DNA of 51,228 nucleotides, from the NCBI GenBank assembly GCA_964495375.1, contig CAZBWM010000002.1, forward strand, positions 137,780-189,007, written 5' to 3'. Positions 23,431 through 50,938 of the stretch are shown here, piece by piece; the first letter of the stretch is position 1, and each line of letters begins with the position of its first letter. Origin of the DNA: an uncultured Planctomycetaceae bacterium. GTDB taxonomy: Bacteria; Planctomycetota; Planctomycetia; Pirellulales; JAEUIK01. Below the pieces are notes generated by a model that saw only the letters and a list, made by a program, of their open reading frames with translations, ran no database searches and was not told where the DNA came from. Both the position numbers and the translations under genes were made by a program.

Positions 23431-24449
23431 CTTCGCGATTTCCTCCGAAATCGCTTCCAAAGCCAGTTAACACGATCCGGCCGAGCGAGCAGCTCTCGGC
23501 CGTCCTCGTTTCTCCGCCTTTCGGCGACCCAATCGCAGCAGCTCTTCGGGTTCGAGCCTGATTGCAGCCCAAAGGCGATAGCCGTCGTTCAAATCGCCAG
23601 TTGGTGATCTCGGCGCGCACAGACGCTAGGGTTTCGTCGAAACTCTCTGAGTGCCGCACCTTCATCAGGCGGCGAGTTAACCCCTCCAACGCACCGGCTC
23701 TCGGCCGCGTGAACTCGCCCACTTGTCGGACTCCGGGAACACCGCCTAACTGGCTTCCGAAAATCGATAACCATGGCGTCGATAATGCCACGCGATTGCG
23801 CGCGGCATTTTCAGCGGCGATTTTGACGTCGCCAACCAACTCTGAGTGCTTTTCGGCTGCCCTGAAACCGAGTCTCTCGCGCGCTCAATTCCGCTTGAGC
23901 TTCCTGCGCCGACGGTGCTCACTGTGTTCACGGGTTAACGATCCGAGAACCACCCCAAGGATTCACCGCGTATGACTTTTTCAATCGAAACCGCGCTAGC
24001 CTTTGAAAGCGAAGACGAAGCCTGTGTAATCTGCTTGACTCGCAAAATGGGCAAATTACACTTAGCGCGCGACGGATCGGATAAGTGGCGCTGCCAACCT
24101 TGGCGGCATCACGATAGGGGGGCAATGTGGGCGCCATTAAGATCTTCAACTACGGGCAGAGCGCCGCACCGGTTTGCGGGGAACTTCGATCGTCGTACAC
24201 CTGGGGCTCCGGTTCGCCCAGGGTGGCCCGCATTTCTGGACGCCCAGCGTGGCCGTGCTTTTTGCAGGTGACTGCCGCGGATTCGCGGCTGGGCCATCGC
24301 CCCATTCATAGCGGCGGTCGAGCCGGTCGTGCGGCGCTCGACGAAGCTGTACATTTATCGTTGCGTGCGGCAAGCAGCGTCTACGATCGGCTGGCGATGC
24401 TGCCTAGCGCTCGGCGTTAAGCCTTCAATTGATTCAAAGGGGTGCGGGG

Positions 24450-27400
24450 ATGAGCGACAGGGAGCAGTCGTTTTGGGGGCGCTTTGGCGTCCAGCGGAAA
24501 CGTGGGCGACATCGCAATCGTCGCCCCGCGCCACGCCGCGCGGTCTTTGAGGTGCTCGAAGCACGCCGTGTGCTGACCCACGTTGGCGACGGGGCGCTCA
24601 TTCATAACCCCATGGTTGTTGAGATGGGGAGCGTGCCCATCATCGATCCAGCGCTGGGGATTGTGCCCGCGGATGTTGTCAGCTCGTTAACGGGGCTGCC
24701 GGCGCTGCACAGCCGACCTGGCGCCCCGGCATCGATCTTTTTGGATTTCGATGGGCATTTCGAGCCCGTCTGGGGTGGGTTCACCAACGTCACCACTCCG
24801 GTGTTCGATCTGGACGGCGATACGTCGACGTTCAACGGCACCGAAATCGCGGTCATCAATTCGGTGTGGCAGCGGGTTAGCGAAGACTACGCACCGTTCA
24901 ACATCGATGTCACGACGGTCAATCCCGGTGACTTTAGCAATGGCAAGGGGTTGCGGGTAGCGATTGGGGGCCTGGGTGACTGGCTGGGCTTTGCCGCGGG
25001 CGGCGTGGCCTACATCGATAATTTCACCAATGCGATTGCCAACACGGTTTACGTGTTCCCCGGTCATCTGAGCAACAGCGAAAAGCTGATTGCCGAAGCG
25101 TCGTCGCACGAGGCCGGGCATGCGGTGGGCTTGTACCACCAGAGCACCTACGACTCCAACAGCGTCAAAGTCCAGGAATACAACCCTGGCTCAGGCAACT
25201 GGGCGCCCATTATGGGCAACAGTTATTCGGCCCAGGTGAGCACCTGGTACAACGGCCAGTCGTCGGAAGGCGCGACCGCCTTGCAAGACGACATGTCGAT
25301 CATTGCTCGCCCGCTCAATGGCTTCGGCTATCGAGCCGACGATCACGGGGGAACCACCGCGACGGCTTCGCCGATGACGGTCGACGGCGACAGCGTGCTG
25401 GGCGGCGGCGTCATCGAAACCATGTCTGACGTCGACGCCTTTACGTTTTCGACCGATGCCGGACTGGTGACGCTGACGGCCAACGTGGCCTCGCTCGGAG
25501 CCAATCTCAAGGCGGTGCTCGAGCTCTACGACAGTTTCGGAACGCTCGTCGCCCAGGCGAACCCGGCCAGTCCTGCAATCTTAAGTGCGACCATCAGCAC
25601 CTTTGTGCCCGCTGGCGTTTACACGGTCCTGGTCAAGGCGACGGGCAACTACGGCTGGGTGGGGCAGTACTCGTTAACCGGCGCCGTCAACGGCGGGTTG
25701 TTCGTCGAAGGGCACACCCCGACCGAGGTCGATGTCGTTGACACTCCCCCCACGGACTTCGATATCCATTTCTCGCGATTCCTGGATTCCGACACGATCG
25801 ACGCCAGCGATTTGCTGGTCAATGGCGTGGCGGCCGATTCGTACGAACTGCTGCCGGATTTCCGGACCGTGCGATTCCATTTCAATACAAGCCCGGTGAC
25901 GGTCGAAGGTTTGCAGCACCTGGAGATTGCCGCCGGCGCCCTGCAAGAACTCGACTTGGGCACGCTGCTCAAGCCGTTTGCGGGCACGTTCCGCTACGAC
26001 CCCACGCCACTATCGATCACGTCGATCGTGCCGGCCGATGGATCGGCGGTAACGCTACCAATGACGAACTTGACCGTACACTTCAGCCAGGAGTTCGCAG
26101 CCGGCTCGGTAAGCGCCGGCGATCTGTTGCTCGATCGCGGCACGGTGACCGGCTTCACGATTGTCGACAGCTCGACGATCGACTTTGCCATCGCGGGCCT
26201 CACGACCGAAGGACCGCTCAGCGTGCAGATCCAGGCCGGCAAGCTGACCGATTTGGCGGGTAACCCAAGCCTGCCGTTCGCCGGCAATCTGATTCTCGAC
26301 GTGGGCATCGTCCCCTATCCCAGTCCGCTGGGAGCTGTCGATCCTTTGGGTAGCCAGATCTACGATCCGGCCGTGGCGGGCACCATCGGTTTTGCCGGCG
26401 ACACCGACAGCTTCACCCTCGACGTCCCTGTCGGCCAGACGATTTCCGTCGTGGTCGAATCGGGGACTGGTCTGAAGCCGGCCGTCACGCTGTACGATCC
26501 GCTGGGTGTCGCAATCGGCACGGCAACGGCCCCGGCCGCCGGCAAGGCGGCGGTGCTCAACACTGTGGCTACCTTGTCGGGCGGAACATACACGATTGTC
26601 GTTACGGGAGCGGAGAACTCGATCGGTTCGTACTCCGCGCACGTGCTGATCAACACGGCAATAGAAGAATCGCGGTACGGAGGAGCCACGAACTCCTCGC
26701 GGGCGACGGCCCAGTCGCTGGATGACAGCTTCCTCGACCTGGGTGGCGGCATTTCACGCGGCGCCGTGCTCGGGCAATCGCAACCGCCGATTGGCCCGTT
26801 GGCCAACGAATCGGAACCGAACGATACCTTGCTGACGGCCGACGATGCGACGCGCAACTTCTTGCCGGCCGTCGGCGCCGACAGTCAACGCTATCAATTG
26901 GGATTGCGCGGCCAACTACAAACGTTCGGTGACTCAGATTGGATTCGTTTGGGGACGCTGCGCGCGGGCGACCGACTCAGCCTGGCGGAATACGGTTCTG
27001 GTTCGGCGCGCGGCTCGGTCGGAGATACCTATCTCTATCTTTATCGTGGCACCAGCGCCAGCCCGATTCTAGTCGCCAGCAACGACGACAGTGGTCCTGG
27101 GGCGGACTCGTTTATTTATCGGTTCAATATTTCTACGACGGACGAGTACTACCTGCGAGCGGGCTCATTTAGTGGCGGCACCGGGTTCTACGACATTGCC
27201 CTCTCGCTGGAAGCCGCGGGTGCCGGCCCTGTCACGGGCGGGGCTGTCCCGGTGGAATCGGAGCCCAACGATTCGGCCGCCACGGCGATCGACGCCTCGA
27301 CCAGTTGGCGAGCCGTACAGCACGTATCGCAAACCACCGGCTCGCTCGGCTTCGACTACGACTACTTCAAATACCACTTCACCGCGGGCGACCTGGTGAG

Positions 27401-30293
27401 CTTTGTCGCCCACCCTAGCTCGGGCCTGCCATCCTCTGGCTCGATCGAGCTGCTGAACTCCAGCGGCACGACGGTTTTTCGCGATTTCGGCGAAAGTGCC
27501 ACGGGAGTCGACAACGATCTGGTGCTGCTCACGTATCGAGTGCCGAGCACCGGAGATTACTACCTGCGCACCAGATGGTTCTCCAGCCCTGTCAGCTACT
27601 CGGTGCGCGCGTACTTGTCGACAGACACAGCGCCACTAGCGCCAACTGCCAACGACGACTACTACTCGTTCACCGTCGCTGCCGGCGAAAGCGTCAGCCT
27701 GGCACTCGCAGGGCTGACGACGGGCCCCCTGCACGTCGAGCTGCAGAACGCGGCGGGCGTCGTGCTGGCCAGCGGCCAAACGGGCGCGACTAACCTGGCC
27801 GAGTCGACCGCCCCCTGGATTGCTCCGACCACGGGAGTGTATTACGCACACGTCACCTCAAACACGGTCGCCGACTACAGCCTGACGGTCAATCGCAATG
27901 CCGTGTTTGATCGCGAAGGAAACGACGATCCCGAGGGACCGCTGCAAAGCTTGTTTGGCACCCATGGCGCCTTGGGCTCGCTCAACGCCAATTCGCCCCC
28001 CATGATCGGTGCGCTGCATTTTGAGCTTGACCCCACGCTGTCATACATCACGCTCAGCGGCACCGTCGGTCCGCCGCCGCGGTTTGCCAGGCCACTTACC
28101 GAACAAAGCCCGGGTAGCCTGACCGCTCATTTTGGCGGGCATGTCCTGCTCGATCGGCAGGAGTCGACGATCGAATTCATCACCGGGAGCGAAATCGAGG
28201 CCATCGACCAACCAGGGCCCTTCGCGCCCGGCGACGTCTCCGCAGATTTCGCCATGAACGTGATCATTGCCGGGCTGCAGTCCGCCGGTGTGTTCGAGCA
28301 TATCGTCATTGATGCCGTCAGCCTGCTTTTAGGGCCCCAGCCGGTGGCGGCAGCCGCGGCAGATGGTCCGCAGCTAGCCAGCCATGTGTTCCCGGCTAAC
28401 AGCGTCATCTTCTCGTTGACGTCGGGCGATTTCTCGCTGGAGATTCCTGACACGCTCTTCACGTCATTCGATGTGTCGGGATGGGGGCAAGTCAATCAAG
28501 CGACCGGTAATGGCAGTCTGGATGATTTCGGCGATCACCTGACGTTGAGCATCCCGTTGCATTTTTCGGTCGAATTGATCGTTCCGGGGATCAACGCGCC
28601 GGCCGAACTGATTCTCGACGGGCAACTGGTCGCCAATTACGAAGACCCTGGCCCCATCGACCCGGTCGACTACTATCTGGTACACCTCGAACCGGGCCAG
28701 CAGTTGACGATATCGACCGATACGCCGCTCGACGGAGTTTCGGGAGTCACGCAGAACACCCTCGATGTCTCGCTGGAGCTGCTCGATTCGCTAGGCGGTA
28801 TCGTCGCCAGCGATTTGAACTCGGCCGGCGACGGAAAAAACGCAGCCCTGTCATTCATTTCGCTCAGCGGTGGCGACTATCGCATTGGCGTTCGCGCCCA
28901 GTCGGGCGTGGGTGAATACGTGCTGCATACGGAGTTGAGCAACCTAGCGCCGATTGCCGATGCGGGCGGGCCATACACGGTCACAAAAGGGGGCGGCCTG
29001 ACGCTCGACGCGTCACTTTCTCACGACCCAAATCCCAACGACCTGCTGACCTATAGCTGGGACATCAACGGCGACGGCGTGTTTGGCGACGCCAGTGGCG
29101 TGTCACCGACGCTGACCTGGGCCCAGCTCGAGACCCTGGGAATCGTTGTCAACTCGACCTATCAAGTGCAAGTCTTGGTCACCGACGGCGAATTGCCCGA
29201 CATCGGCGACACGACGTTGACGACACAGTACTCCTCGATCGAAGCGCGGCAAATCTTCTACAATCGCTCGGCTTTCGACGGCAACAACCCCATGCCCAAT
29301 GCGGCCGATGACGGGGCCATTGCCACGGACAAACATGCTTTGCTGCCGGGCGAGACTGCTACGTTTGCCAATTACACAAGCTATAGCCGCGGCATCAACG
29401 GCATCATGATCGACATTGCCGGGCTACCCAATGTGCCCACGGCGGCTGACTTCCAGTTCATCGTCGGCAACCTGGGGGATATTCCGGGGGATTGGTCGGA
29501 AGGCCCCGCGCCGGCGAGCGTCAGCGTCCGGCAAGGCGACGGCGTCGGTGGTGCGGATCGTGTGACGATCATCTGGACTGACAATGCAATCCAGAAGCAG
29601 TGGCTCTTCGTACGAGTTATCGCCAACGACCAGACCGGGCTTGAGCGGGCCGATGAGTTCTATTTTGGTAACGCGCTGGGGGACACGGGCGGCTCGCCGA
29701 CAAACGCGAAGGTGAATGCGACCGATCAAATCGAGATCCGTGGCCATCAACGCGTGGCCGTGATCAACCCAGCGCCGATCACTGATCCGTATGACATCAA
29801 TCGCGACCGCAGCGTTAACGCCACGGACGAGATCTTGGCGCGGCGCAACCAGACAGCCTTCGACTCATTGCGGTTGGTCACTGCGCCGGTGGTGGCATTT
29901 GGCCCGGGTGTAACACTTCGCCTGGCGGCAGCCCTGCTGCCCCCGGCCACGACCGGTGACGCGTTGTCGGCAGCCATGTTTTCGACGGCGACGCCCTTGC
30001 CGACTGCCACGCCGCTGGGCGGCAGCACCTTGCCCGCTTCGCTGGATGTGAGCCTCGCTCGGTCGGTTGTATCCCCTGCGGCACCCAGGCAGTTTGTGGC
30101 GACCTTGACTCGGGACTTGGCGGTGCGAGCCGTGGCCAGCGAACTGGGGCCGCTGACAGTTATCGCGAAAGCTCCCACCAAGGTCTCCGTGTTACAGCCT
30201 GAAACCCCAGCGCTCGACGACTCGTTGTTGACGTTGTTGTCGCAGAACCTGGTTCGCACCTCGGGAATGCGACCAGTGCTCCGTCGTGCTTGA
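24450..30293 (+). CDS. giant secreted multidomain protein: N-terminal metzincin-like metalloprotease, multiple PPC domains, PKD domain, dockerin-like repeat
   Basis: 1948 aa. The N-terminus RRAVFEVLEARRVLT is a motif I recall from large Planctomycete surface proteins. HEAGHAVGLYH is the metzincin HExxHxxGxxH signature. At least six repeats have the pre-peptidase C-terminal (PPC) pattern (D-x-D-x-F/Y ... G-x-Y-x-(I/L)-x-V). A PKD-like segment is PIADAGGPYTVTKGGGLTLDAS...WDINGDG, and a dockerin-like segment is DINRDRSVNATDEIL. An alternative TTG start lies at 24429. Confidence 0.8.
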   Translation: MSDREQSFWGRFGVQRKRGRHRNRRPAPRRAVFEVLEARRVLTHVGDGALIHNPMVVEMGSVPIIDPALGIVPADVVSSLTGLPALHSRPGAPASIFLDFDGHFEPVWGGFTNVTTPVFDLDGDTSTFNGTEIAVINSVWQRVSEDYAPFNIDVTTVNPGDFSNGKGLRVAIGGLGDWLGFAAGGVAYIDNFTNAIANTVYVFPGHLSNSEKLIAEASSHEAGHAVGLYHQSTYDSNSVKVQEYNPGSGNWAPIMGNSYSAQVSTWYNGQSSEGATALQDDMSIIARPLNGFGYRADDHGGTTATASPMTVDGDSVLGGGVIETMSDVDAFTFSTDAGLVTLTANVASLGANLKAVLELYDSFGTLVAQANPASPAILSATISTFVPAGVYTVLVKATGNYGWVGQYSLTGAVNGGLFVEGHTPTEVDVVDTPPTDFDIHFSRFLDSDTIDASDLLVNGVAADSYELLPDFRTVRFHFNTSPVTVEGLQHLEIAAGALQELDLGTLLKPFAGTFRYDPTPLSITSIVPADGSAVTLPMTNLTVHFSQEFAAGSVSAGDLLLDRGTVTGFTIVDSSTIDFAIAGLTTEGPLSVQIQAGKLTDLAGNPSLPFAGNLILDVGIVPYPSPLGAVDPLGSQIYDPAVAGTIGFAGDTDSFTLDVPVGQTISVVVESGTGLKPAVTLYDPLGVAIGTATAPAAGKAAVLNTVATLSGGTYTIVVTGAENSIGSYSAHVLINTAIEESRYGGATNSSRATAQSLDDSFLDLGGGISRGAVLGQSQPPIGPLANESEPNDTLLTADDATRNFLPAVGADSQRYQLGLRGQLQTFGDSDWIRLGTLRAGDRLSLAEYGSGSARGSVGDTYLYLYRGTSASPILVASNDDSGPGADSFIYRFNISTTDEYYLRAGSFSGGTGFYDIALSLEAAGAGPVTGGAVPVESEPNDSAATAIDASTSWRAVQHVSQTTGSLGFDYDYFKYHFTAGDLVSFVAHPSSGLPSSGSIELLNSSGTTVFRDFGESATGVDNDLVLLTYRVPSTGDYYLRTRWFSSPVSYSVRAYLSTDTAPLAPTANDDYYSFTVAAGESVSLALAGLTTGPLHVELQNAAGVVLASGQTGATNLAESTAPWIAPTTGVYYAHVTSNTVADYSLTVNRNAVFDREGNDDPEGPLQSLFGTHGALGSLNANSPPMIGALHFELDPTLSYITLSGTVGPPPRFARPLTEQSPGSLTAHFGGHVLLDRQESTIEFITGSEIEAIDQPGPFAPGDVSADFAMNVIIAGLQSAGVFEHIVIDAVSLLLGPQPVAAAAADGPQLASHVFPANSVIFSLTSGDFSLEIPDTLFTSFDVSGWGQVNQATGNGSLDDFGDHLTLSIPLHFSVELIVPGINAPAELILDGQLVANYEDPGPIDPVDYYLVHLEPGQQLTISTDTPLDGVSGVTQNTLDVSLELLDSLGGIVASDLNSAGDGKNAALSFISLSGGDYRIGVRAQSGVGEYVLHTELSNLAPIADAGGPYTVTKGGGLTLDASLSHDPNPNDLLTYSWDINGDGVFGDASGVSPTLTWAQLETLGIVVNSTYQVQVLVTDGELPDIGDTTLTTQYSSIEARQIFYNRSAFDGNNPMPNAADDGAIATDKHALLPGETATFANYTSYSRGINGIMIDIAGLPNVPTAADFQFIVGNLGDIPGDWSEGPAPASVSVRQGDGVGGADRVTIIWTDNAIQKQWLFVRVIANDQTGLERADEFYFGNALGDTGGSPTNAKVNATDQIEIRGHQRVAVINPAPITDPYDINRDRSVNATDEILARRNQTAFDSLRLVTAPVVAFGPGVTLRLAAALLPPATTGDALSAAMFSTATPLPTATPLGGSTLPASLDVSLARSVVSPAAPRQFVATLTRDLAVRAVASELGPLTVIAKAPTKVSVLQPETPALDDSLLTLLSQNLVRTSGMRPVLRRA

Positions 30294-31611: not shown

Positions 31612-32179
31612 CGTTCAGTTCCTTTGCCGCAGTCCAGTCGTCGCGGCGCTCGCAGTTACCAGCGCCTACTGCAGCCCAGCTTCGCTGGACCAGGACAGCG
31701 GGGTGCCAAGAGGGTGCATGGAGGGTTCAAGGAATTTAGCTTCGGGGTCCATTCGCGTATTTTGGTGGTCTCGACCGTAGAAACTTGTGTGCAAACACCA
31801 AGGCTGCAAATGTCACATAGCAACCGGTGGCCAAGACTCCGAAAAGTGCCCAGTCCGCTCACCATTGAGAGTCAGCCAAAACAAGACGGGCAGGAATACT
31901 AACGTGCCTCCGCTAGAAGTTGGAAGTACATGCTCTCGGAACCAAATCCGGCCGAGTGTTGTTTTGCCCGTAGCGTAGGGATAGATCTCCTATTCCGATT
32001 TTCTCGGCAGTCGCCACCAACTCGTCGCGGAAACGAAAATGCGACCGTATACTACCGCGCTCAAACCAGAAGGCGCCAAGCGCAACCGCGCATGAAGAAC
32101 CCCGCCGAGACTCGGGTGAGCGACCGTCGGGGGTGTCGTGGTCCAACGAATGTTTGCCACAGCGATCAAGGACCAAGCC

Positions 32180-33310
32180 ATGCGGCGCCAAATCTACCTC
32201 GATTTCAATGGCTCAACGCCGATCGCACGAGAAGTCCTCGTAGCGATGCAACCGCACATGGTTGCCAGTTTCGGCAACCCGTCGAGCGGTCACTGGGCCG
32301 CCCAGCCGGCTCACGATGCGGTCGAGCGGGCTCGCGGGCAAGTCGCGGCGCTGATCGGTTGCCAAGCGACCGAAGTCACCTTCACGTCCGGCGGAACTGA
32401 AGCCAACAACCAGGCCTTGAAAGGTGTCTGCTGGGCGAAGAAAGATAGCGTTGCCAAGCCACATTTCGTCGCCTCGGCAATCGAGCATCCAGCGATCCTG
32501 GCCCCACTGCGGTTCCTTGAGCGCCTCGGCGCTGAGGTAACGATCGTCGGTGTTGACCGATTCGGATGCGTCGATCCGGATGATATCCGCCGCGTGATAC
32601 GGGCCAATACAGTGCTCGTCTCCGTGATGCATGCCAACAACGAAGTCGGCACGATTCAGCCCATCGCCGAGATCGGTGCGATTTCCCGTGACCGCGGCGT
32701 GCTGTTTCACACGGACGCGGCACAGAGCCTCGGCAAGATCGCGGTCGACGTGGATGCCTTGCAAGTCGATCTGCTGTCGATCGCCGGCCACAAGCTCTAT
32801 GCGCCCAAAGGAGTTGGCGCTCTCTATGTCCGTGAAGGTACGGGTCTGGAGAGCTTGTTGCACGGTGGCAACCACGAGGCAGGTCGCCGAGCCGGGACAG
32901 AGAGTGCCTTGCTCACCGCGGGACTCGGCGCCGCGTGCGAGGTGAGTCGGCATTGGCTCGCGAGCGAGAGCATCCTGAAGCTGCGAGAGCTGTTTTGGGG
33001 CTTGCTACAGGAGAGCTGCGGAGACGCCGTGGTGCTCAACGGTCATCCAACGCAAAGATTGCCCAATACGCTCAACGTCAGCTTTGTCGGATGCGATGGT
33101 GGTGCGTTACTGGCGCGGTTGGAGGAAGTTGCCGCGTCGACTGGCTCGGCATGCCACTCCGGGGACACGAGCGGAAGCCCGGTGCTGGCCGCAATGGGCG
33201 TAAGTCCGCAGGTGGCAGCCGGCGCGATCCGCTTCAGCCTCGGCCGATCAACCAGCGAGGATGAGATTCGCGACGTCGTTACGCGACTGCGAGGCGCACT
33301 TTCCAGCTAA
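32180..33310 (+). CDS. cysteine desulfurase (class V aminotransferase, IscS/NifS-like); possible selenocysteine lyase partner of SelD
   Basis: RRQIYLDFNGSTP...TSGGTEANN...HTDAAQSLGKI...SIAGHKLYAPKGVGALYV includes the PLP-Lys motif and the active-site Cys loop (GSACHSG). Confidence 0.85.
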   Translation: MRRQIYLDFNGSTPIAREVLVAMQPHMVASFGNPSSGHWAAQPAHDAVERARGQVAALIGCQATEVTFTSGGTEANNQALKGVCWAKKDSVAKPHFVASAIEHPAILAPLRFLERLGAEVTIVGVDRFGCVDPDDIRRVIRANTVLVSVMHANNEVGTIQPIAEIGAISRDRGVLFHTDAAQSLGKIAVDVDALQVDLLSIAGHKLYAPKGVGALYVREGTGLESLLHGGNHEAGRRAGTESALLTAGLGAACEVSRHWLASESILKLRELFWGLLQESCGDAVVLNGHPTQRLPNTLNVSFVGCDGGALLARLEEVAASTGSACHSGDTSGSPVLAAMGVSPQVAAGAIRFSLGRSTSEDEIRDVVTRLRGALSS

Positions 33311-33435: not shown

Positions 33436-34536
33436 TTATGCCCCGTCCGTCGTTAGTGTGTGGAGCCGCTCGCGGGCAACGCGATACAGTTCGCTGTCGG
33501 TTGGGGCCGAGGTGACCACTTCGCCGAGTAGTTGCTTGGCCTTGTCGGGGGCGACTTTCGCCAGCCGCTCGGCCCGCTCAAACGTTTTGTGGCAGGCCCG
33601 CAAGTGGCGGCAGCGTTCGGCGGCCGCGACCTCGGTTTTGTCCCGCTTGAGCGCGGTCAGCCGCTTCTGGGCCAATTCGGCCGAGGGGGCGGGCGAAAGC
33701 TTGACTGCCTGCTCGTAGACCAAAAACGCGCAGCACGTCTGATCGTCCTTCTCGTGCTGCTGGCCAAGCTGCCACAACCGCGCCGCCTCCGGCTCGTTAA
33801 GCACCAGGGCGTATTGCGGGCTGCGACGCAATTTGACCAGGCGCCTACGCAGTTCGGGCCCGATACGAGGGACGTCGTCATAGGCCCACAGCAGTTTGTC
33901 GAATTCTTCGAAGCAACTTAGCACGACGGCGTTAGGATCGTCGGGCTTCGCGCCGGTCGCGGGCGGCGCCGGTTGTTGTTCGCCGGGTCCGGCCACTGGG
34001 GTGTCGTCTTCAAGGCCAGGAATCGCGATCGCGTCGCGGTGGTAGCGCGATTTGGAGCCGGTCGACCCCGGGGCAGCGGACTTCGACTTCGAACCAGCCG
34101 CCGGAACTGCCGGCGCGCTGGCCGACGTGGCATCGGCTAGCCGCGTTTCAATATCGTCGAACTTCTGGCGGGCTTCGTCCTGTAAGGCGGTGAGCGCCTG
34201 ACGTGCGGCGGCCGCCTGCTCGGGCGCGTCCTTATTCAACGCGACGCGCGTGTACAGCGTCACCGCTTTGCGAATCAGTCCGGACTTTTGTGCCGACTCG
34301 GCCATGGCCAAGCGCGCCTTGGCATCATCGGTGATGGCCAGGATCGCGGCTTGTTCCGCCTCCCAGGCCATTTGCATGGCCAGCATGGCAGCTTCACGAC
34401 GGGCCAAGGTGGCAGCGCTAACGCCCCCCCCGGGGGCACAGCCTGCAGCGCCTCACAAGCCCACCGCTGGCTTCATGTCAACCAGCGTCAAACCGGCGGT
34501 CAGAACGACCGTGAAGAATCTTGTGCGACGATGCAT
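33436..34536 (-). CDS. hypothetical exported helical/TPR-like protein interrupted by one in-frame TGA (candidate selenoprotein or pseudogene)
   Basis: ATG at 34536 encodes the signal peptide MHRRTRFFTVVLTAGLTLVDMKPAVGL. An in-frame TGA follows at 34455..34453. The same frame then continues GAAGCAPGGGVSAATLARREAAMLAMQ... for 323 aa. A C8G5 homopolymer and a strong hairpin lie 15-35 nt downstream of the UGA. Confidence 0.5.
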
Positions 34537-34899
34537 CGTGATCCCCTCCGTCGCTGAATATTAAAAGCGTTTGTGGCACCGCCAAGTTTATCTGAGGGTA
34601 CCAAACGCTCGATAGCAACGATTGGTAGTCTACGGATGGGCGTTGCCCGCTGCAAGCTGAAGATGGGCAAGCGAACCGCTAATTTGGAGTCTGGTTCGTT
34701 TTTCGGCCCGTTAGCGTCAATTTTGCGTTACGCACATCGACCGAATGCCGGGAGACCGGCCCCCAACTCAATACGCGGCAGGGCTTGTTTTGCGGTGTTT
34801 GCAGCGGCTCGCTCTTTGGCCGACACTGATGTCGAGGCGAATTCTCACCGCGCCGGGAACATCCGTGCCGCGAACGTCCGTCCTGAAAGTGTTGTGGCG

Positions 34900-35961
34900 A
34901 TGAACACGAACGACTTGTCAGTACGGCTTACGCAGTTAGCCAAACGCGCCGGATGCGCTGCCAAGCAGCCCCCTGGCTATTTGTTACCGTTGCTGGGACA
35001 GATTGGTGGCCTGCTCGACCCGAATGTTCTCGTGGGCTGCGCGACGGCCGACGACGCGGCAGTTTATAAACTGTCAGACGACCTGGCGCTTGTCCTCACG
35101 ACGGACTTCTTCACACCCATTGTGGATCGGCCCTACGACTTTGGTGCGGTCGCCGCCGCGAACGCACTGAGCGATGTTTACGCGATGGGGGGCCAGCCCT
35201 TAATGGCCCTGAACCTCGTCGGTTTCCCAGACGAGAAGCTCTCGGTCGATGTGCTCGCCGAGATCTTGCGCGGAGCGGCCGACAAGGCCACCGAGGCGGG
35301 CATCGCCATCGTCGGGGGGCACACCATCAAGTCCGAAGAACCGATTTTTGGACTATGCGTCGTCGGCACGGTTCACCCCAATAAAGTGCATGCGAACTCC
35401 GGCGCCGTGCCAGGAGACTTGCTGGTGCTGACCAAGGCGATCGGCTTGGGAATTATCACTACCGCTGCCAAGAACAACCAGGACCATCTCGGCGCGATCG
35501 GGCAGGTAATCCAGATCATGACCACCCTGAACAAAACCGCGGCCGAAGTGCTCGCGCGGTTCGACGTCCATGCCGTAACGGATGTCACGGGATTTGGGCT
35601 CTTAGGCCATTTGCGAAACGTCACGTCGGCCAGCGGCGTGCATGCCCGAGTCTGGGCCGACGCGGTTCCGCTGCTTCCGCCGGCGCGGGAGTATTTGAGT
35701 AACGGAATTGCTCCCGGCGGGACCCACGCGAACTGGAGATTTCTGGCCGACTGGGTAACGTACGAGGAGGGTTTAACCAAAGAGGAGCAGCTCCTCCTGT
35801 GCGACGCGCAGACGTCTGGAGGCCTGTTGGCTTGCGTTGACAGTGAGCAATGCCCAGAGCTGATCCGTGCGTTACAAAACGCCGGCATCGAGGCGGCTGC
35901 GGTGATTGGCAGGATCGAACATGGCGAGCCAGGCAAGATCAGCGTCTCAGCACATCGATAG
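34900..35961 (+). CDS. selD: selenide, water dikinase (selenophosphate synthetase), Cys-type
   Basis: MNTNDLSVRLTQLAKRAGCAAK matches the E. coli SelD N-terminus [20 protein letters not shown]. Also DPNVLVGCATADDAAVYKL and AIR-synthase-related C-terminal motifs. Confidence 0.9.
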   Translation: MNTNDLSVRLTQLAKRAGCAAKQPPGYLLPLLGQIGGLLDPNVLVGCATADDAAVYKLSDDLALVLTTDFFTPIVDRPYDFGAVAAANALSDVYAMGGQPLMALNLVGFPDEKLSVDVLAEILRGAADKATEAGIAIVGGHTIKSEEPIFGLCVVGTVHPNKVHANSGAVPGDLLVLTKAIGLGIITTAAKNNQDHLGAIGQVIQIMTTLNKTAAEVLARFDVHAVTDVTGFGLLGHLRNVTSASGVHARVWADAVPLLPPAREYLSNGIAPGGTHANWRFLADWVTYEEGLTKEEQLLLCDAQTSGGLLACVDSEQCPELIRALQNAGIEAAAVIGRIEHGEPGKISVSAHR

Positions 35962-36053: not shown

Positions 36054-37976
36054 GTGACTCGTCGCTCGCTGATTCTGGGAACGGCCGGGCATATCGATCA
36101 CGGCAAGACGACGCTCCTGCGCGCGCTGACCGGGATCGATACCGATCGGCTGCCGGAGGAGAAACGGCGAGGAATTACGATCGACATCGGGTTTGCTAAC
36201 CTCGACATTGGTCCCTGGCACTTGGGAATCGTCGACGTGCCTGGCCACGAGCGGTTTATCAAGAACATGCTGGCCGGTGCGGCCGGCATCGATATCGCTT
36301 TGCTGATCGTGGCCGCTGATGATTCGGTGATGCCGCAGACGCGCGAACACCTGGCGATTCTCCGGCTGCTCGACATCCAACACGGCGTCGTCGTGATTAC
36401 GAAATGCGACCGTGTCGAACCGGCGTGGCTCGACATGGTTGAGGATGATATTCACCGCCTCACGGTCGGCACGTTCCTCGAGAAAGCGCCGATCGTGCGA
36501 ACTGCGGTCCCCGGCGTCGGTCCAAGTCTGGGGCTCGCTAGCTTGCGGGATGCGATCCAAACGGTTTGTCAGCAAGTCGTCGACAAGTCGGCAGCGGAGG
36601 TTTTTCGCATGCCAGTCGACCGAGCCTTCAGCCTGCAAGGTCTGGGCACGGTCGTAACTGGTACGGTTTGGTGTGGTCAACTGAACGTTCGCGACGAAGT
36701 CGAGTGGCTCCCACTGGCAAAGCGACTCAACGTTCGTGGACTGCAGAATCATGGTTGTGACGCGCAAACTGTCGTACGTGGGCAGCGGGCGGCCATCAAT
36801 CTCAGCGGCGTCCACCCTAGTGAGCTTGTTCGTGGACACGAGTTGGCCAGCCCCGGATACCTGGTCCCCTCGAAACTGCTGACGGTCGAACTCCAGGTTC
36901 TGGGCGATAGTCCACGAAGCATCAAGCACCGCTCACGCCAGCGGCTGTATGTCGGCACGCAAGAATTGATCGTGACCGTCGCCTTGTTGGGGCAGCAAGC
37001 GATCGAGCCAGGCCAGAGTGGTCTGGGGCAGTTGCATTGCGCGGAACCAGCCATCGCGGTGGCCGGCCAACCGTTTGTCGTGCGCGCCGAATCACCGCTG
37101 GTCACGATCGGCGGCGGTCATGTCCTGCAGCCGCGCGCCGATCGCATCACTCGTCGACAGTCCGCGCGAATCCAACGGCTCGAAGCACTGCAATCGAAAG
37201 CAGAGGTCGTACGAGCCGCCACGGCGATCTACTTTTATGCGTTCGAGACATGGACTGCACTCGATCTCTGTCGCGATGCGAATCTGGGCATAGATCGCAC
37301 CCCTGCGCTTGTCGAACAGCTTCTACAGGCGGGAGAAGTTGTCGAGCTCTCCATCAAGCCTTCCCAGAGATTGCGCGTCCATCGAGATGTGTTGAACGAC
37401 GGGCAGCAGCAACTACTGAGAATAGTGGAGCAACTTCACGCTCAACACCCCTTGCAGCCGTTGGTGCCGCGTGAACGGGTCGCCGCACTCGACAAGCGAA
37501 TTCAGGGTGCGCCGATAATTGATGCGTTGATCGACCAACTAATTGAGCGTGGATTACTGCGAGGCGATCAGCGTGCCGTGGCCTTGGCCGATTTTGCGCC
37601 GCGGCTTTCAGCCGCTCAAAAGCGACTCCGCGAGCAGGTCTTAGCCGCATTGCAGCAGGACGGCCTACGGCCACCCACCCCGGCAGAGTTGAGCCAGTCG
37701 ATGTCGGCGGACGATGGTAACGTTCGCCAAATCCTCGATCTCTGCACAGCCCAAGGGCTCCTGGTGTACCTGAGCGACGAGCTTTACTTGCACTACGAGG
37801 CCGAAGCTGCGATGCGGCTGCAATTGCAGCAAACCTTGCGCGATGGCGGAGGGCTCACCGTGAGCCAGGTTCGAGACTTGCTGGGAACGAGCCGGAAGAT
37901 CGCCGTGCAAATCTGCGAGCACCTCGACCGGATCGGGTTTACCCGGCGCGTCGGCGACCTGCGCGTCTTGCGATAG
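36054..37976 (+). CDS. selB: selenocysteine-specific elongation factor
   Basis: GTG start. [13 protein letters not shown] (G1), DVPGHERF (G3), ITKCD (G4), and a ~330-aa C-terminal winged-helix extension typical of bacterial SelB. 640 aa. Confidence 0.9.
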
Positions 37977-38049
37977 CAGGCCAGCCGCGCCGAGTCGCCT
38001 GCTATAATTGGACAGATGCGAAAGCGGCTCTGGAAGGTTGGGACCGGAC

Positions 38050-39474
<1,425 letters not shown>

Positions 39475-39552: not shown

Positions 39553-39649
39553 GGGAGTGTCAGTACGCCTGGTGGCGGCCGCGGGCTTCAAACCCGTTGT
39601 GGGGTCTGTCAAACAAACCCTAGGTGGGTTCGATTCCCATCCACTCCCG
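39553..39649 (+). tRNA. selC: tRNA-Sec (selC, anticodon UCA)
   Basis: Lies 78 nt after selA. 8-bp acceptor GGGAGTGT/CCACTCCC with one terminal mismatch. Anticodon stem GCGGG/CCCGT with loop CTTCAAA (UCA). Long variable arm GGGGT...ACCCT. T-arm GTGGG-TTCGATT-CCCAT. ~97 nt. Confidence 0.7.
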
Positions 39650-40088
39650 CTTTTGTCGGTACTGCAGCCCCCTTGTGAATTCTACGTCGCGAATTCTGGG
39701 CTTGGCGTGCTAGGAAATTTCTGAATCATCGCCTATGTGATTGGGAAGGCCGCGCCGAGTGATCTCAAGCTAGATCAAAGCAAATCGGAGGTCCTGTCCC
39801 TGCCCTGTGCAGAATCAGAATCCGGCGGAATACTAGCGGCACAGTGGAGTTCGAACCTAACACGCGAAGTTGCAATAAACGAGTTCGAGCTGACCCACAG
39901 CGGTGCCGAACGAATCGCAACTTGTTAAGCGGCTTGTCTGAAAGTTCACGGCTGCGGAGAGACGACCCTCCCGTTAACAGCCGGCGTAAGTGGCGGCCGG
40001 CATTTGACGGGTTGCCTTGGCGCTTACTCGGGATCCGTCCGTGGTGCACGGGTTGAACTGGTGACCCTAATCCACACTGCCCGCTGCC

Positions 40089-43000
40089 CTACTCTTTGAC
40101 AGCTCGTCGGCCATCCAAGAAATCAATCGCATGATCGATCTGGGTCGCAATGCGGCTGCCATCAGGGCTGATCGCCATGGCCCTGACCGGGTGAGCTCCG
40201 CGAAGATCCAACAACTCAGCGCCATCCGCGACGCGGTACAGGCGCAGCCCGAGCTCGGTTTGCACAAGCAGAGTTTCCCCTCGATCGAGGAAAACGACTT
40301 TCCAGACGGATGCCGTTTCGGGGATTTCACCGAGTAGCTTCCAAGGACTTCGATCCCACACACGAAGGAAGTGGTCGCCGAGGGTGACCAGACGGTGACC
40401 ATCGGTCGAAGCGGCGACGTGCTCAATCGAGGCGCGATGCGCCGCGTGCTCAAAAACTATTTCGCCGCGCGCCGCATCCCAAATTCTCAGCCTGCGATCG
40501 AGCGAAGCGCTCGCCAGCAGATTAGTTCCGGGAATCGCGGTCACCGCGTTCACAGTTTGTGGATGAATCAGGGAGTGCAGCAACTGGCCGCTTAGCAAGT
40601 CAATCAGCAGCAATTGCTGCTCCGTGGCCAGCGCAGCCCAACCCCCGGCCGAATTCAGCGCAACGCCTTTGACCGGAGCGTCCGTACCCAGACTCCAGAT
40701 TTCGGCCTTCGACTCAAGCTGTATTCCGCGCAATGCCTGCCGATCCGAATTGAGGACGATTGCCAGGTTCTGCTTGTGAGCGAGTTGGGCCCAGGTCGGC
40801 GCCTCGATGCGGAGGGTATCCAGCCAGGCTCCCTCCTTGGCATCCACCAGATAAACAGCATCGTCACGCGGCATGCAGGAGACGATCCGATCGTCGTCGC
40901 TCCAGTTGAGCGAATGGGGCTGACGACCACCGCTCATCAACTTTGGCTCGACGTACCTCAGCCCTGGATAGAGCCGAGCGGTACCGTCGCGGGAGCCGGT
41001 GAGAAACACGTTCCGGCCAGGAACATAGGCCACGCTGTTAATTCGATCGCGGTGCCCATAACGAACGCGAAAGGCGGAGGACGCGTTGCGACTCGCGCGG
41101 GCAATCATGAGCGCACCCGATGCGTCGCCGACGGCCAGCGTATCCTCCGCATCGCTAGTCACGCAGCGCGGCTGCACCAGAAAGTCGTGTGGTCCAGCAC
41201 CCCTGCCAAAGTCCTCGCCTGCGGTTAAGTCCCAACTGAGGACTGCGCCGTTACGGCATGTCCCGACTAAGATCCGCTGGGACGACTCGACCGAAAGCGC
41301 GAAGACGTGGTCTTCCGTCGGATTGCGCAGCTTGCCGTCGGGTAGGCGTGGATCTGGCCCTGCCCTGGCCACGTCCCAGCCCCGCACATCGCCGTCTTCG
41401 CTCGCTGTAAAGAGTTCGCCGCGGCGTGAAAAGGCGATTGTGCGTACAACATCCTCATGACCAGCCAAGACCGCAGCCGACTCGCCGGTCGCGCTATGCC
41501 ATACGCGTACGATCCGATCGCCCCCCGCGGCAGCGATCCACTTGCCATCCGGTGAGAACTTCACGTCAGCCTGCCATTCTGTGGACCCCGTTAAGCTGTC
41601 GATCGGTTGCAGCTCAGGCAGCCGCCAACGATGAACCGGGCCATCCTCGCCAACCGCAGCCAGGGTGCTTCCGTCAGGCGAAAAGGCGATGGCGCTGACT
41701 TTTCCCACCTGCGCCTTCAGTTCGCCGATTTTCAGTCGCGTGTCGGTGTCCCAAAGCTGAATCGCGCCATCGGCCCCGGCGGTTGCCAGGATCCCGCCGT
41801 CGGAACTTACCGCGACCGAGGTCACGCTGCCGTCGTGCTGGCCAAGCTGCTCGGATTCTTGCGTCAGATTATGCAGATACCACCAGGCGAAATCGCGTTG
41901 GTCCTGTTCGCCAGGTTTCGGCGTATGACGCGCCAGGATTTTCAAGGTGCGGTCCCCCGCCGAACCGCGCCACGCTTCCAGAGCCAGGTGCATGTCCGCG
42001 GCATAACCATTTCGACGGGCCTGCGCCTCGGCAGTCCGGGCCGCGTCGCGCTCGCGCGCGGTCTCTTGAAGCAACGAGGAGACGCGCCGATTGTGCTCGA
42101 ACAGCCCGACAAACAGCACCACGATGCCGGCACACACAACGGTGGCCAGGGCCGCCAATGCGGGCCGACGCCGACACCATTTCCAAACGGTCGTGGGCAG
42201 AGACGTCGGTCGCGCGACGATCGGCTCGTCGCGCAGGTAACGGTCCAGGTCGTTTGCCAACTCGAGCGCCGCCTGGTATCGCCGGCTCGGCAGCTTTTCA
42301 AGGCATCGCAAGCAGATCGTCTCAAGGTCCAAGGGAATGGATCTTCGTTGCTTCTTGGGTCTCAACGGCTCGGCATCGTTGATCTGCCGGAGGACTTCGA
42401 TATCGCTCGCGGCCCCGAAGGGAGCCCGGCCCGTCAACAGCTCGTAAAGAACCACGCCCAGTGAGTAGATATCTGCTCTTGGACCGATCTCAGCAGTGCG
42501 ACCACCGGCCTGCTCCGGCGACATATAGCGCACCGTGCCAAACAGCGCACCGGAACGGGTCATGTCTTGATCGGCAGCGATAATCTTTGCCAGTCCGAAG
42601 TCCATCAGTTTGGGGACGCAATCCTCCAGTCGAACTGAAACAGCGTCGGCCCTGGCAGTCATTAGCAAGATATTGCTCGGCTTAATATCGCGGTGCAAAA
42701 CCCCTCGGTCGTGCGCATGAGCAACCGCGGTCGCCAAATCCCGAATCAACCGGGCCGCCGCACGCGGCGGGGCAGCTTCCGAACGGGCCGCCAGCCAAAC
42801 CGCCAAAGTCGGTCAGGCACAGTATACCGAGGCAATGTACGGCAGCATCCCGTCGGCGCCGGCTTCGAGCACGGAAACGATATTCGGATGGTCGAGCTTG
42901 GCCGCGGCATGCGCTTCGCGATCGAAGCGCTGCAGCAATTCAGTCGAGCCGAGCGCTTCCAGTCGGGGGATCTTCAGCGCCACTTCGCGCTGCGTGCTCG

Positions 43001-43439
43001 AATCCCAAGCACGATAGACGATGCCGAATCCACCCGAGCCGAGTCGGTCCCGCAGCTCGAAGCGGCCGATCCGCTCACGCGCACTGAGTGGGGCGAGCAA
43101 GGCTGTGTCTGAGCCAGCATGGGATTCGGGTGCTTGCCCACTCGGGGCGAGATGAGTGTCATCAGATCGCGGATCCTCGGCCGGCGCCAGCAGCCCCGCC
43201 TGAGCCACGCGATTGATCAGCGCCAGGCAGGCTTGTGCTTCGCAAAGCGTCGCCAAGGTATCCTGGGGCAAGTCGGCCAGCGGTCGCTCGTCGATCGTCA
43301 GCTCGCTGCCATTGCTGACCGCTTCATCGCACTTCGCCAGGCATTCGCGAAATAACGCGTCCTCGCACAGTCGCGCATCGGCATCGTCGTGCTCCAGGTG
43401 CCGCTCAGCATTCGAACCGCCATCGAGCATGGCCATCAC
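40089..43439 (-). CDS. ECF-associated Ser/Thr protein kinase with C-terminal WD40 beta-propeller; single in-frame TGA at 42815..42813
   Basis: GTG start overlaps the sigma-factor stop (GTGA). Cys-rich N-terminal extension, then the kinase N-lobe GSGGFGIVYRA...VALK. The reading frame ...LPYIASVYCA-TGA-PTLAVWL... continues in the same frame to HRDIKPSNILL, DFGLA, and more than 8 WD40 repeats. Confidence 0.75.
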
Positions 43440-44089
43440 TTGCCACCTTGCGCGAGTTGCCTTCGCAACTGCAGCACGGCTCTCGCCCAGAGTTTTTGCG
43501 CGGCATCGGCGCCGCGTCCCATCCGCTCTCCGATTTCCACGAACGTCAACCGCTCCCAGTTGCGCAACAGAATGACCTGGCGATGATCCGGTGACAGCCG
43601 TTGGATCAGCCTGTTCAATTTCTCAGCCTCTTCGTTGGCGATGGCCACCGCGCTGGGAGTCGCATCGTCGCCTGCAACCGCCAACTCGAAGGCCTGGGTT
43701 GGATCACCACAGCCGAGGGAAATCTCGCGGGCCGTGGCCCGTTTTTGGGTCCCTTGGTAGCGGCGCCGCTCGTGAGCAAGCTTGTTTTCCAGAATTTTTC
43801 CCGTCCAAGCCAACAGCTCCTGTTGCGACAAGCCTCGGAACCGATCGAACCGCAGCCGGGCCTGGAGCATTGTCTCTTGCACGAGATCCGATCCGCCCAC
43901 CTTTCCCTGTACCGCCGGCGAAATGCTCCGATTGGCCGCCTGCAACAGATAGTGGCGGCAGCTTTCCAGAATCTCGGCAATCGCACTGTCAGAACCGGAC
44001 CGCGCCGCCTCGATTCGCGCTTGAAAACGGGACTGCGTTCGGCTCTGGCTAGCCAGTCCAGGCGGCCGCGCACTCGAGTCGCCCATCAT
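43436..44089 (-). CDS. ECF (sigma-70 family) RNA polymerase sigma factor
   Basis: Region 2 (LVQETMLQARLRFDRFRG) and region 4 (LSPDHRQVILLRNWERLTFVEIGERMG). Confidence 0.85.
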   Translation of the reverse strand: MMGDSSARPPGLASQSRTQSRFQARIEAARSGSDSAIAEILESCRHYLLQAANRSISPAVQGKVGGSDLVQETMLQARLRFDRFRGLSQQELLAWTGKILENKLAHERRRYQGTQKRATAREISLGCGDPTQAFELAVAGDDATPSAVAIANEEAEKLNRLIQRLSPDHRQVILLRNWERLTFVEIGERMGRGADAAQKLWARAVLQLRRQLAQGGK

Positions 44090-50534: not shown

Positions 50535-50610
50535 GCCGGGACGGGAGTCGAACCCGTTACAGCCAGATTCGCAGTCTGGTGCTCTACCGTTGAGCTACCC
50601 TCTCGGGCAT
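50535..50610 (-). other. tRNA-like element with intact D-, anticodon- and T-arms but a non-pairing acceptor stem
   Basis: Minus-strand D-arm GCTC-AACGGTA-GAGC, anticodon arm CCAGA-CTGCGAA-TCTGG (anticodon would be GCG), T-arm ACGGG-TTCGACT-CCCGT. The 5' GCCCGAG and 3' CCCGGCG do not pair. Confidence 0.4.
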
Positions 50611-50830: not shown

Positions 50831-50853
50831 TGGCTCCAGCGTCAAATCGTCAA

Positions 50854-50927
50854 TGTCCTCGCCAGGAATCGAACCTGGTCCTCGACCTTCGCAGGGTCGC
50901 GTGCTTTCTCCTCCACACCCCAAGGAC
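50854..50927 (-). tRNA. probable tRNA, anticodon GCG by my fold (Arg)
   Basis: Acceptor GTCCTTG/CGAGGAC with one G·U pair. D-stem GTGT/GCAC. Anticodon arm CGACC-CTGCGAA-GGTCG. T-arm CCAGG-TTCGATT-CCTGG. 74 nt. The D-loop is atypical. Confidence 0.5.
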
Positions 50928-50938
50928 AATCGCGGCGA

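Follow-up and report, generated by a model that had tools for sequence, protein, structure and literature searches.

The gene at 33436..34536 (minus strand) of a 51,228-nucleotide stretch of planctomycete DNA very probably encodes a genuine selenoprotein, in which the in-frame UGA at codon 28 would be read as selenocysteine (Sec, U). The stretch, here called the window, is positions 137,780 to 189,007 of contig CAZBWM010000002.1 (assembly GCA_964495375.1) from an uncultured Planctomycetaceae bacterium. By comparison with its relatives, the gene belongs to an apparently undescribed selenoprotein family of Pirellulales-type planctomycetes, with mostly Sec forms and a minority of cysteine forms. 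Gene structure, UGA conservation, the Sec/Cys pair, a hairpin resembling a selenocysteine insertion sequence (SECIS), the fold class and the nearby Sec machinery were established by computation. An earlier note on this sequence had proposed an undescribed selenoprotein here, and the proposal is borne out by the UGA in ten loci of six lineages, by the aligned Cys in homologues and by the hairpin of the Sec forms.

Results

Structure of the interrupted gene

The elements around the UGA are as follows.

33436..34536, minus strand: selenoprotein coding sequence, 366 codons including the putative Sec at codon 28, plus TAA stop (from translation)
34542..34549, minus strand: Shine-Dalgarno-like GGAGGGGA, 5 nt 5' of the ATG (from the sequence)
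34536..34534, minus strand: start codon ATG
34456..34536, minus strand: predicted signal peptide, codons 1-27, reading MHRRTRFFTVVLTAGLTLVDMKPAVGL (from the sequence and a hydrophobicity scan)
34455..34453, minus strand: in-frame UGA (TGA), codon 28, putative Sec codon; conserved in 10/10 loci of 6 lineages and aligned with Cys in P0053, P0060, P0068 and P0066
34440..34438, minus strand: partner Cys codon TGT, giving U-GAAG-C; present in all Sec forms and three Cys forms
34439..34421, minus strand: hairpin core, GUGCCCCC / GGG loop / GGGGGCGU, 8-bp stem
34436..34424, minus strand: C5G8 run (C8G5 on the plus strand; from the sequence)

A signal peptide, one in-frame TGA and then an open frame had been described in the earlier note, and translation confirms 338 codons from the TGA to the stop TAA at 33438..33436; the Cys five residues past the UGA is likewise where it had been reported. 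The signal peptide has a basic n-region (RR.R), the h-region FFTVVLTAGLTLV and the c-region PAVG|L. The orthologues retain the Shine-Dalgarno element as GGAGGGGA or GAAGGGGA amid an otherwise diverging upstream region, and nothing comparable was found ahead of the internal Met codons 51, 54 and 56, among which gene callers place the start of the window protein.

In this GC-rich window 83 open frames are interrupted by a TGA (open for 25 codons or more on either side and for 200 or more altogether). The pattern of an in-frame TGA is thus common by chance, and it is the comparative evidence that decides, not the single sequence. The finding goes beyond chance because relatives were compared; a lone sequence together with a hairpin energy would have been insufficient.

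Close orthologues and coding selection across the UGA

A word-indexed protein search gave six relatives, each called from an internal Met. DNA of close orthologues was obtained for L001 and L004 (Pirellulales metagenome-assembled genome (MAG), ~73% identity), L002 and L006 (~95%) and L003 (~77%); these five loci come from different assemblies, with NCBI, ENA, JGI and Logan among the sources. Scans of genome contigs and metagenome contigs for further relatives returned near-identical ones only, and the DNA of distant homologues was obtained via exact-protein look-ups.

All five close loci share the ATG, the signal peptide, the TGA and the frame. From the TGA to the first Met, the counts of variable sites at codon positions one to three are 4/1/11 (chi-square p 0.007), and with the signal peptide added they are 10/5/22 (p 0.002). 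Nine codon columns are purely synonymous vs four residue-changing ones. The sole indel measures exactly 3 nt and occurs between the TGA and the first Met in L001 and L004, where this one-codon deletion leaves UGALC in place of UGAAGC and shortens the U-to-Cys spacing to x3. N-terminal coding DNA is 83-86% identical vs 43-51% for the upstream non-coding DNA of the same pairs. The codon-position bias, the 3-nt indel and the difference between coding and non-coding identity together mean that the stretches before and after the UGA are translated in one frame; purifying selection acts on this frame both before and after the TGA.

Distant homologues and the Sec/Cys pair

An exhaustive profile search gave 127 cluster representatives. 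Conservation lies mainly in a C-terminal domain of ~160 residues, and the best-conserved stretch is at profile positions ~145-312. Of ~90 distinct cluster representatives with a length of 200 aa or more, only six have a called signal peptide, and the choice of start differs arbitrarily from one homologue to the next (internal Met, GTG or TTG codons).

In the DNA upstream of five distant truncated proteins, which are 30-37% identical to the window protein, a signal peptide, a TGA and the motif G/R-x3-C-x-P-[G/S]-x-G follow one another in frame.

L007: ...LEAA-U-GVHGCAPGLG
L008: ...AQAG-U-GVRVCPPGSG
L010: ...LQGG-U-GAGSCSPGSG
L011: ...AEAG-U-RARSCRPSSG
L014 (NCBI Pirellulales MAG): ...IEAG-U-GVSSCPPSSG

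Together with the close orthologues this makes ten loci (L001-L004, L006, L007, L008, L010, L011 and L014) in six lineages, all of which keep the UGA in frame; the six of six lineages comprise every N-truncated database protein whose DNA was recovered. No further stops or frameshifts occur on either side of the TGA in the compared loci.

Three homologues, among the few called with a signal peptide, are uninterrupted open reading frames (ORFs) with Cys in place of the putative Sec.

P0053: SWAACGGKSCSAG (AACGGKSCSAG)
P0060: LAAQCGASMCAPG (AQCGASMCAPG)
P0068: SNAGCGGKTCAAG (AGCGGKTCAAG)

In each of them the first Cys aligns with the UGA and the second with the conserved partner Cys (Cys-x4-Cys). 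The Sec form L010 is 41-46% identical to these three proteins over the full length, and this identity and the aligned Cys indicate that Sec and Cys interchange within one subfamily. Such an interchange, as read from the alignment, is the classical signature of a true Sec site. The orthologue comparison proposed in the earlier note, whether Cys or Sec occupies this position, thus came out with the Sec codon kept and with Cys in the three uninterrupted homologues.

The P0026 cluster (7 members) and P0038 are full-length proteins with a signal peptide and with neither Sec nor C-x4-C (P0026: ...SAYGRGHMHGFSPRGGGFGG). P0026 also has no second Cys in the C-terminal C-x5-C, a joint loss that hints at a functional link between this residue and the N-terminal pair.

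SECIS-like hairpin downstream of the UGA

The 8-bp stem with a GGG loop is found where the earlier note had placed it. It begins 13 nt past the UGA, its loop begins 21 nt past the UGA, and it is encoded by the codons for C-A-P-G-G-G. The simple hairpin has a free energy of -11.3 kcal/mol, and the minimum free energy (MFE) fold lengthens the helix to 34446..34412. All ten Sec forms have a contiguous hairpin on an invariant CCC...GGG core, with stems of 4-8 bp, loops of 3-5 nt and a loop start 18-22 nt past the UGA. The loop sequence is GGG in the window clade; elsewhere it is GGGCU, GUU (twice) or AGUUC (twice), and each loop has G at position 1 or 2. Simple-hairpin energies range from -8.4 to -16.1 kcal/mol in nine of the ten; L011 has -5.2, or -9.9 with a bulged extension.

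The published model of bacterial SECIS elements (bSECIS) specifies a loop of 3-9 nt, an upper stem of 4-16 bp, G in the first two loop positions, a UGA-to-loop distance of 16-37 nt and an MFE of -7.5 kcal/mol or lower (PMC13188914). By our own enumeration of hairpins on the ten Sec forms, all ten satisfy these constraints (PMC13188914), L011 passing the energy cut only via its bulged extension. The best hairpins of P0053, P0060 and P0068 have 4 bp only and lie at other spacings; these Cys forms have no SECIS-like hairpin, and the Pro...Gly codons that form its arms are missing there. The check for a bacterial SECIS element suggested in the earlier note therefore separates the two forms, the hairpin being present with Sec and missing with Cys.

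The Pro codon in the stem is CCC in all six Sec lineages, and CCC makes up 29% of the Pro codons in the genes of the window. If the other lineages share a similar codon usage, the fixed codon hints at a constraint at the RNA level.

Alternative explanations for the in-frame TGA

A single in-frame stop resembles a fresh nonsense mutation, and the gene could be a pseudogene of an exported protein whose downstream frame is decaying; the window holds a likely example of such decay in a kinase gene (TGA 42815..42813, Gly in homologues). Here ten loci of six lineages share the TGA at identities down to ~33%, selection is purifying on both flanks, which have no other stops or frameshifts, and the loci, which differ at many sites and come from different samples, do not duplicate a single assembled sequence. 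The purifying selection on both sides excludes this alternative, which the earlier note had put forward, and we give it next to no chance. The same note had considered a false stop through a sequencing or assembly error, since homopolymer runs are error-prone and the C5G8 run lies 17 nt downstream of the TGA. The TGA itself is outside the homopolymer, however, and is present also in distant lineages that do not have the run; what excludes an error is that independent assemblies of NCBI, ENA, JGI and Logan share both the TGA and the in-frame C5G8 run, so a false stop is scarcely credible.

The stretch could also comprise two units, namely a 27-codon upstream ORF ending at the UGA and a non-exported protein that starts at an internal Met. 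Met is present at codons 51, 54 and 56, and the database entries are all called from internal Met, GTG or TTG codons, but these called starts vary arbitrarily across the homologues and the internal Met codons have no Shine-Dalgarno. The 23 codons from the TGA to Met51 evolve as coding sequence (4/1/11 sites and a 3-nt indel), the G-x3-C-x-P-G motif is conserved down to 33% identity and the Cys forms read straight through, and we consider two units very unlikely. It could be argued, finally, that the UGA is translated as a standard residue (near-cognate Trp, Cys or Arg) or under a reassigned code, as leaky UGA read-through exists in bacteria and sequence alone cannot name the inserted residue. 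Such a reading has to be set against the full selA, selB, selC and selD set in the adjacent DNA, the Cys at the aligned site of uninterrupted homologues, the SECIS-type hairpin that occurs only with the UGA forms and the use of TGA to terminate other genes in the window; it keeps a slim chance. Decoding of the UGA as Sec is thus the reading we favour.

The kinase gene served as an internal control. This Ser/Thr kinase-WD40 gene (40089-43622, minus strand) is broken by the in-frame TGA at 42815..42813, with the kinase N-lobe (GRFELRDRLGSGGFGIVY...YIASVYCA) preceding the TGA and the rest (PTLAVWL...HRDIKPSN) following it. The position is Gly in 38/38 motif-matched homologous kinases and Cys in none, and a homology search with the interrupted gene found no close orthologue. 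By this motif count the TGA resembles a nonsense mutation of GGA to TGA (pseudogene) or a base error, and not a Sec codon. The tests applied to codon 28 discriminate, because the kinase TGA fails the same tests.

Several results weigh against the selenoprotein reading or the roles proposed for it below. The folding energy of the hairpin is not unusual relative to shuffles of the GC-rich sequence (z +0.7 to -1.7). Its covariation is not significant, as 67-120 of 500 shuffles reach the observed measures; only two pairs (G-C to A-U and G-U to C-G) have compensatory changes, and the CCC/GGG pairs of the core, which fall on the conserved Pro and Gly codons, are the same throughout. The GGG loop of the window clade has no G-U as found in the other lineages. 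Searches of Pfam, NCBIfam and PDB gave no indication of the protein's function from homology, and no gene neighbourhood that could point to a function is conserved across the family. Export and the cleavage site come from a reading of the sequence, all relatives are from metagenomes or MAGs, and the evidence is computational throughout.

Protein family, predicted fold and export

Pfam gave no match for the window protein and none that is consistent across 73 family members; in NCBIfam 20.0 only MamA appeared, with 15 bits vs a cutoff of 200, and no sequence relatives were found in the PDB. An AlphaFold2 model from the 73-sequence alignment is all-helical, with a predicted local distance difference test score (pLDDT) of 86 and a predicted template modelling score (pTM) of 0.73. 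Structure comparison of the model gave only generic matches of tetratricopeptide repeat (TPR) type, and the Pfam TPR models were below threshold on the window protein. The parts of the model, numbered after Sec where residues are given, are listed below.

After Sec: predicted disordered tail carrying G-A-A-G-C-A-P (AlphaFold2 pLDDT <50)
34117..34416, minus strand: N-terminal TPR-like helical domain, residues 13-112 (pLDDT mostly >90)
33937..34116, minus strand: Ala/Pro/Ser/Gly low-complexity linker, residues 113-172, predicted disordered (pLDDT ~45-54)
33445..33936, minus strand: C-terminal helical domain, residues 173-336, the family signature (pLDDT 94-98)
33735..33730, 33612..33610 and 33594..33592, minus strand: C-terminal Cys codons, namely CC, Cys and Cys (C-x5-C-H)

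The model thus suggests a flexible N-terminal tail, which bears U-x4-C, followed by two TPR-like helical domains with a disordered linker between them. The linker is rich in indels in the alignment and varies in length among orthologues. In the family profile alignment C240, C241 and C281 are invariant columns, and C287 is present in at least 90%.

The signal peptide and its cleavage site were assigned by reading the sequence with the hydrophobicity scan as an aid. AxA or AxG plus one residue ends the signal peptide ahead of U or C in all lineages, and the predicted cleavage at AVG|L, one residue before Sec, is consistent with a signal peptide of the Sec secretion type. A lipoprotein at the conserved Cys was considered and rejected, as the preceding residues AAG, GAL, VHG, VRV, AGS, ARS and VSS misfit the lipobox L-[AS]-[GA]-C, which calls for a small residue at -1 and Leu or another hydrophobic one at -3, right behind the h-region; the Leu or Val at -1 in two lineages and the ~18 residues from the h-region to the Cys do not agree with it. 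Export by twin-arginine translocation (Tat), which would require a family-wide S/T-R-R-x-F-L-K motif in the n-region, was rejected as well: the window clade has RRTRFF, but no RR pair occurs in L007, L008, L010, L011, L014 or the Cys forms, and a Sec-type signal peptide seems the simpler reading.

Discussion

Proposed mechanism and function

In the mechanism we propose, translation would begin at ATG 34536 behind the conserved Shine-Dalgarno, and the SelB/tRNA(Sec) system of the neighbouring genes would read the UGA at codon 28 as selenocysteine, directed by the hairpin in the coding sequence with its loop 21 nt past the UGA. Removal of the signal peptide (26-27 residues) at AVG|L would release a mature periplasmic protein that starts X-U-G-x-x-x-C-x-P-G. 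The selenol/thiol pair would then sit on a flexible Gly-rich N-terminal tail tethered to two TPR-like domains, the second of which would bring four conserved cysteines (CC and C-x5-C).

What the pair does can be proposed only tentatively. The U-x4-C tail could be a mobile selenenylsulfide redox centre or a ligand pair for soft metals or metalloids, and it would work jointly with the C-terminal domain and its four Cys or with a partner bound on the TPR-like surfaces. A broader proposal, which we regard as possible but doubtful, is a non-enzymatic TPR-like scaffold whose Sec at the mature N-terminus serves as a mobile redox or soft-metal/metalloid arm, with Sec ancestral and dominant in the family and the protein perhaps the principal selenoprotein that maintains the Sec machinery in these Pirellulales. 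That role would explain the position of the gene beside selD-selB-selA-selC and a NifS-like gene. We also speculate that the gene may be cheap to keep under selenium limitation: failed decoding would yield just a 27-residue peptide, because the UGA directly follows the signal peptide.

Relation to known selenoproteins

The proposed recoding is the standard bacterial mechanism, and what appears to be new is the protein family. Like canonical SelB-decoded genes (the E. coli fdhF/fdnG type), the gene has an in-frame UGA with an immediate coding-region hairpin, selA, selB, selC and selD, and Cys homologues. Unlike canonical bacterial selenoproteins, it matches no listed family and has no recognisable oxidoreductase fold, and its Sec would be about residue 2 of the predicted mature protein, whereas canonical selenoproteins carry it in an enzyme active-site pocket. 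As far as the predictions hold, export, Sec at the mature N-terminus, a non-enzyme fold and the dominance of Sec are the unusual features. In the literature the family was not found described in selenoproteome surveys, the BSepDB or deep-Sep papers, the 2026 review, the Haft & Gwadz study or the planctomycete selenoprotein analysis; the BSepDB family table lay outside this comparison, so a listing there as 'hypothetical protein' is possible.

The nearest analogue in kind is SaoB, an exported ABC-transporter substrate-binding selenoprotein from anaerobes with a CU motif, most of whose members are Sec forms and whose database entries are divided or cut short at the UGA (bioRxiv 10.1101/2022.07.06.499078). 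Both are extracytoplasmic (here by prediction) with a signal peptide, have Sec with a nearby Cys, occur mostly as Sec forms and have mis-called entries. The fold of SaoB is that of a substrate-binding protein, its vicinal CU lying within the pocket, whereas the present family has a TPR-like helical repeat with U-x4-C on a disordered N-terminal tail, Pirellulales hosts and no sequence similarity to SaoB.

Mammalian thioredoxin reductase carries a flexible-tail Sec redox centre in its C-terminal Gly-Cys-Sec-Gly. By analogy only, the present Sec/Cys pair on a Gly-rich mobile end could form a selenenylsulfide and shuttle electrons with the protein's own Cys domain. The present tail differs in being N-terminal, with x4 spacing and not vicinal residues, and the protein has no flavoprotein domain, is predicted to be periplasmic and shares no homology with the reductase. 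Matches to periplasmic TPR scaffolds (the BepA TPR domain, YfgM, BamD and CpoB/YbgF) are generic for helical repeats, and these proteins carry neither Sec nor the CC and C-x5-C cysteines.

Gene callers truncate this family almost everywhere, so that its export, N-terminal motif and selenium content are invisible in databases; its recognition would correct the annotation of >100 clusters and add a selenoprotein family for Planctomycetota, a phylum to which selenoproteome surveys, to our knowledge, have hardly extended. The bacterial selenoproteins known so far are mostly cytoplasmic redox enzymes. A helical-repeat protein that is exported and carries Sec beside the signal-peptidase site would widen the known contexts of selenium, and the conserved hairpins (CCC/GGG stems with RGUUC or GGG loops) may offer a first look at SelB-SECIS specificity in Planctomycetota. 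Decoding as Sec predicts a selenium-bearing N-terminal peptide, L-U-G-A-A-G-C-A-P-G-G-G-V-S-A-A-T-L-A-R.

Genomic neighbourhood and other features of the window

The genes flanking the selenoprotein gene and the conserved block upstream of it are as follows.

32138..33310, plus strand: class-V aminotransferase gene (NifS, cysteine desulfurase or selenocysteine lyase type), convergent (Pfam Aminotran_5, E 8e-67)
34627..34655, minus strand: conserved non-coding block TTGCAG, 17 nt, TAGACT, ~90 nt upstream of the ATG
~34900-35961, plus strand: selD (Cys form), divergent from the selenoprotein gene (Pfam AIRS/AIRS_C)
36054-37976, plus strand: selB (Pfam SelB domains)
38008-39474, plus strand: selA (Pfam SelA)
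39553-39650, plus strand: tRNA-Sec (selC; ARAGORN and Rfam, 69 bits)

A complete selA, selB, selC and selD set therefore lies within 5 kb of the UGA gene, which is located between the class-V aminotransferase gene (the cysteine desulfurase of the earlier note) and selD-selB-selA-tRNA(Sec). The same selD-selB-selA-tRNA-Sec arrangement adjoins the orthologues in L001 and L002; an Aminotran_5 gene is downstream of the orthologue in L002 and absent there in L001. The neighbourhoods in L003, L007, L011, L013 and L014 differ and have no adjacent sel genes. The embedding in a sel cluster described in that note thus holds for the window and the closest clade and does not extend across the family: adjacency is limited to the closest clade.

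The TTGCAG-17 nt-TAGACT block is kept in L001-L006, while the surrounding intergenic DNA is 40-51% identical in distant pairs, and its place is the intergenic region between this gene and the divergent selD. A sigma-70 consensus scan upstream of the selenoprotein gene made no call, the block included; the block may be a promoter or a binding site for a regulator. The mechanically predicted selD ORF (34573-35961, plus strand) has an N-terminal extension of ~109 codons into this intergenic region. The AIRS domain begins at residue 160 of this ORF, and translation probably starts at ATG 34900 (MNTNDLSV...). SelD is here the Cys form (RAGCAAK) and no selenoprotein.

A GFO_IDH_MocA oxidoreductase gene adjoins family members in two unrelated loci, L011 (4413-5747) and L013 (1656-3062), one of them a Sec-form and one a Cys-form locus, and a CMD/AhpD-like gene is also near in L013. 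Both kinds of gene are very common in planctomycetes, and the adjacency may be a coincidence.

On the minus strand the tRNA finders disagree: ARAGORN calls a tRNA-Arg(GCG) at 50853-50928, where Rfam has no match, and Rfam instead gives a partial tRNA match (model positions 5-66) at 50538-50600, also on the minus strand. A 1954-aa ORF at 24429-30293 (plus strand) contains PPC (pre-peptidase C-terminal) and Big_5 domains, which is typical of the large surface proteins of planctomycetes; it ends in TGA, so TGA is an ordinary stop in this genome.

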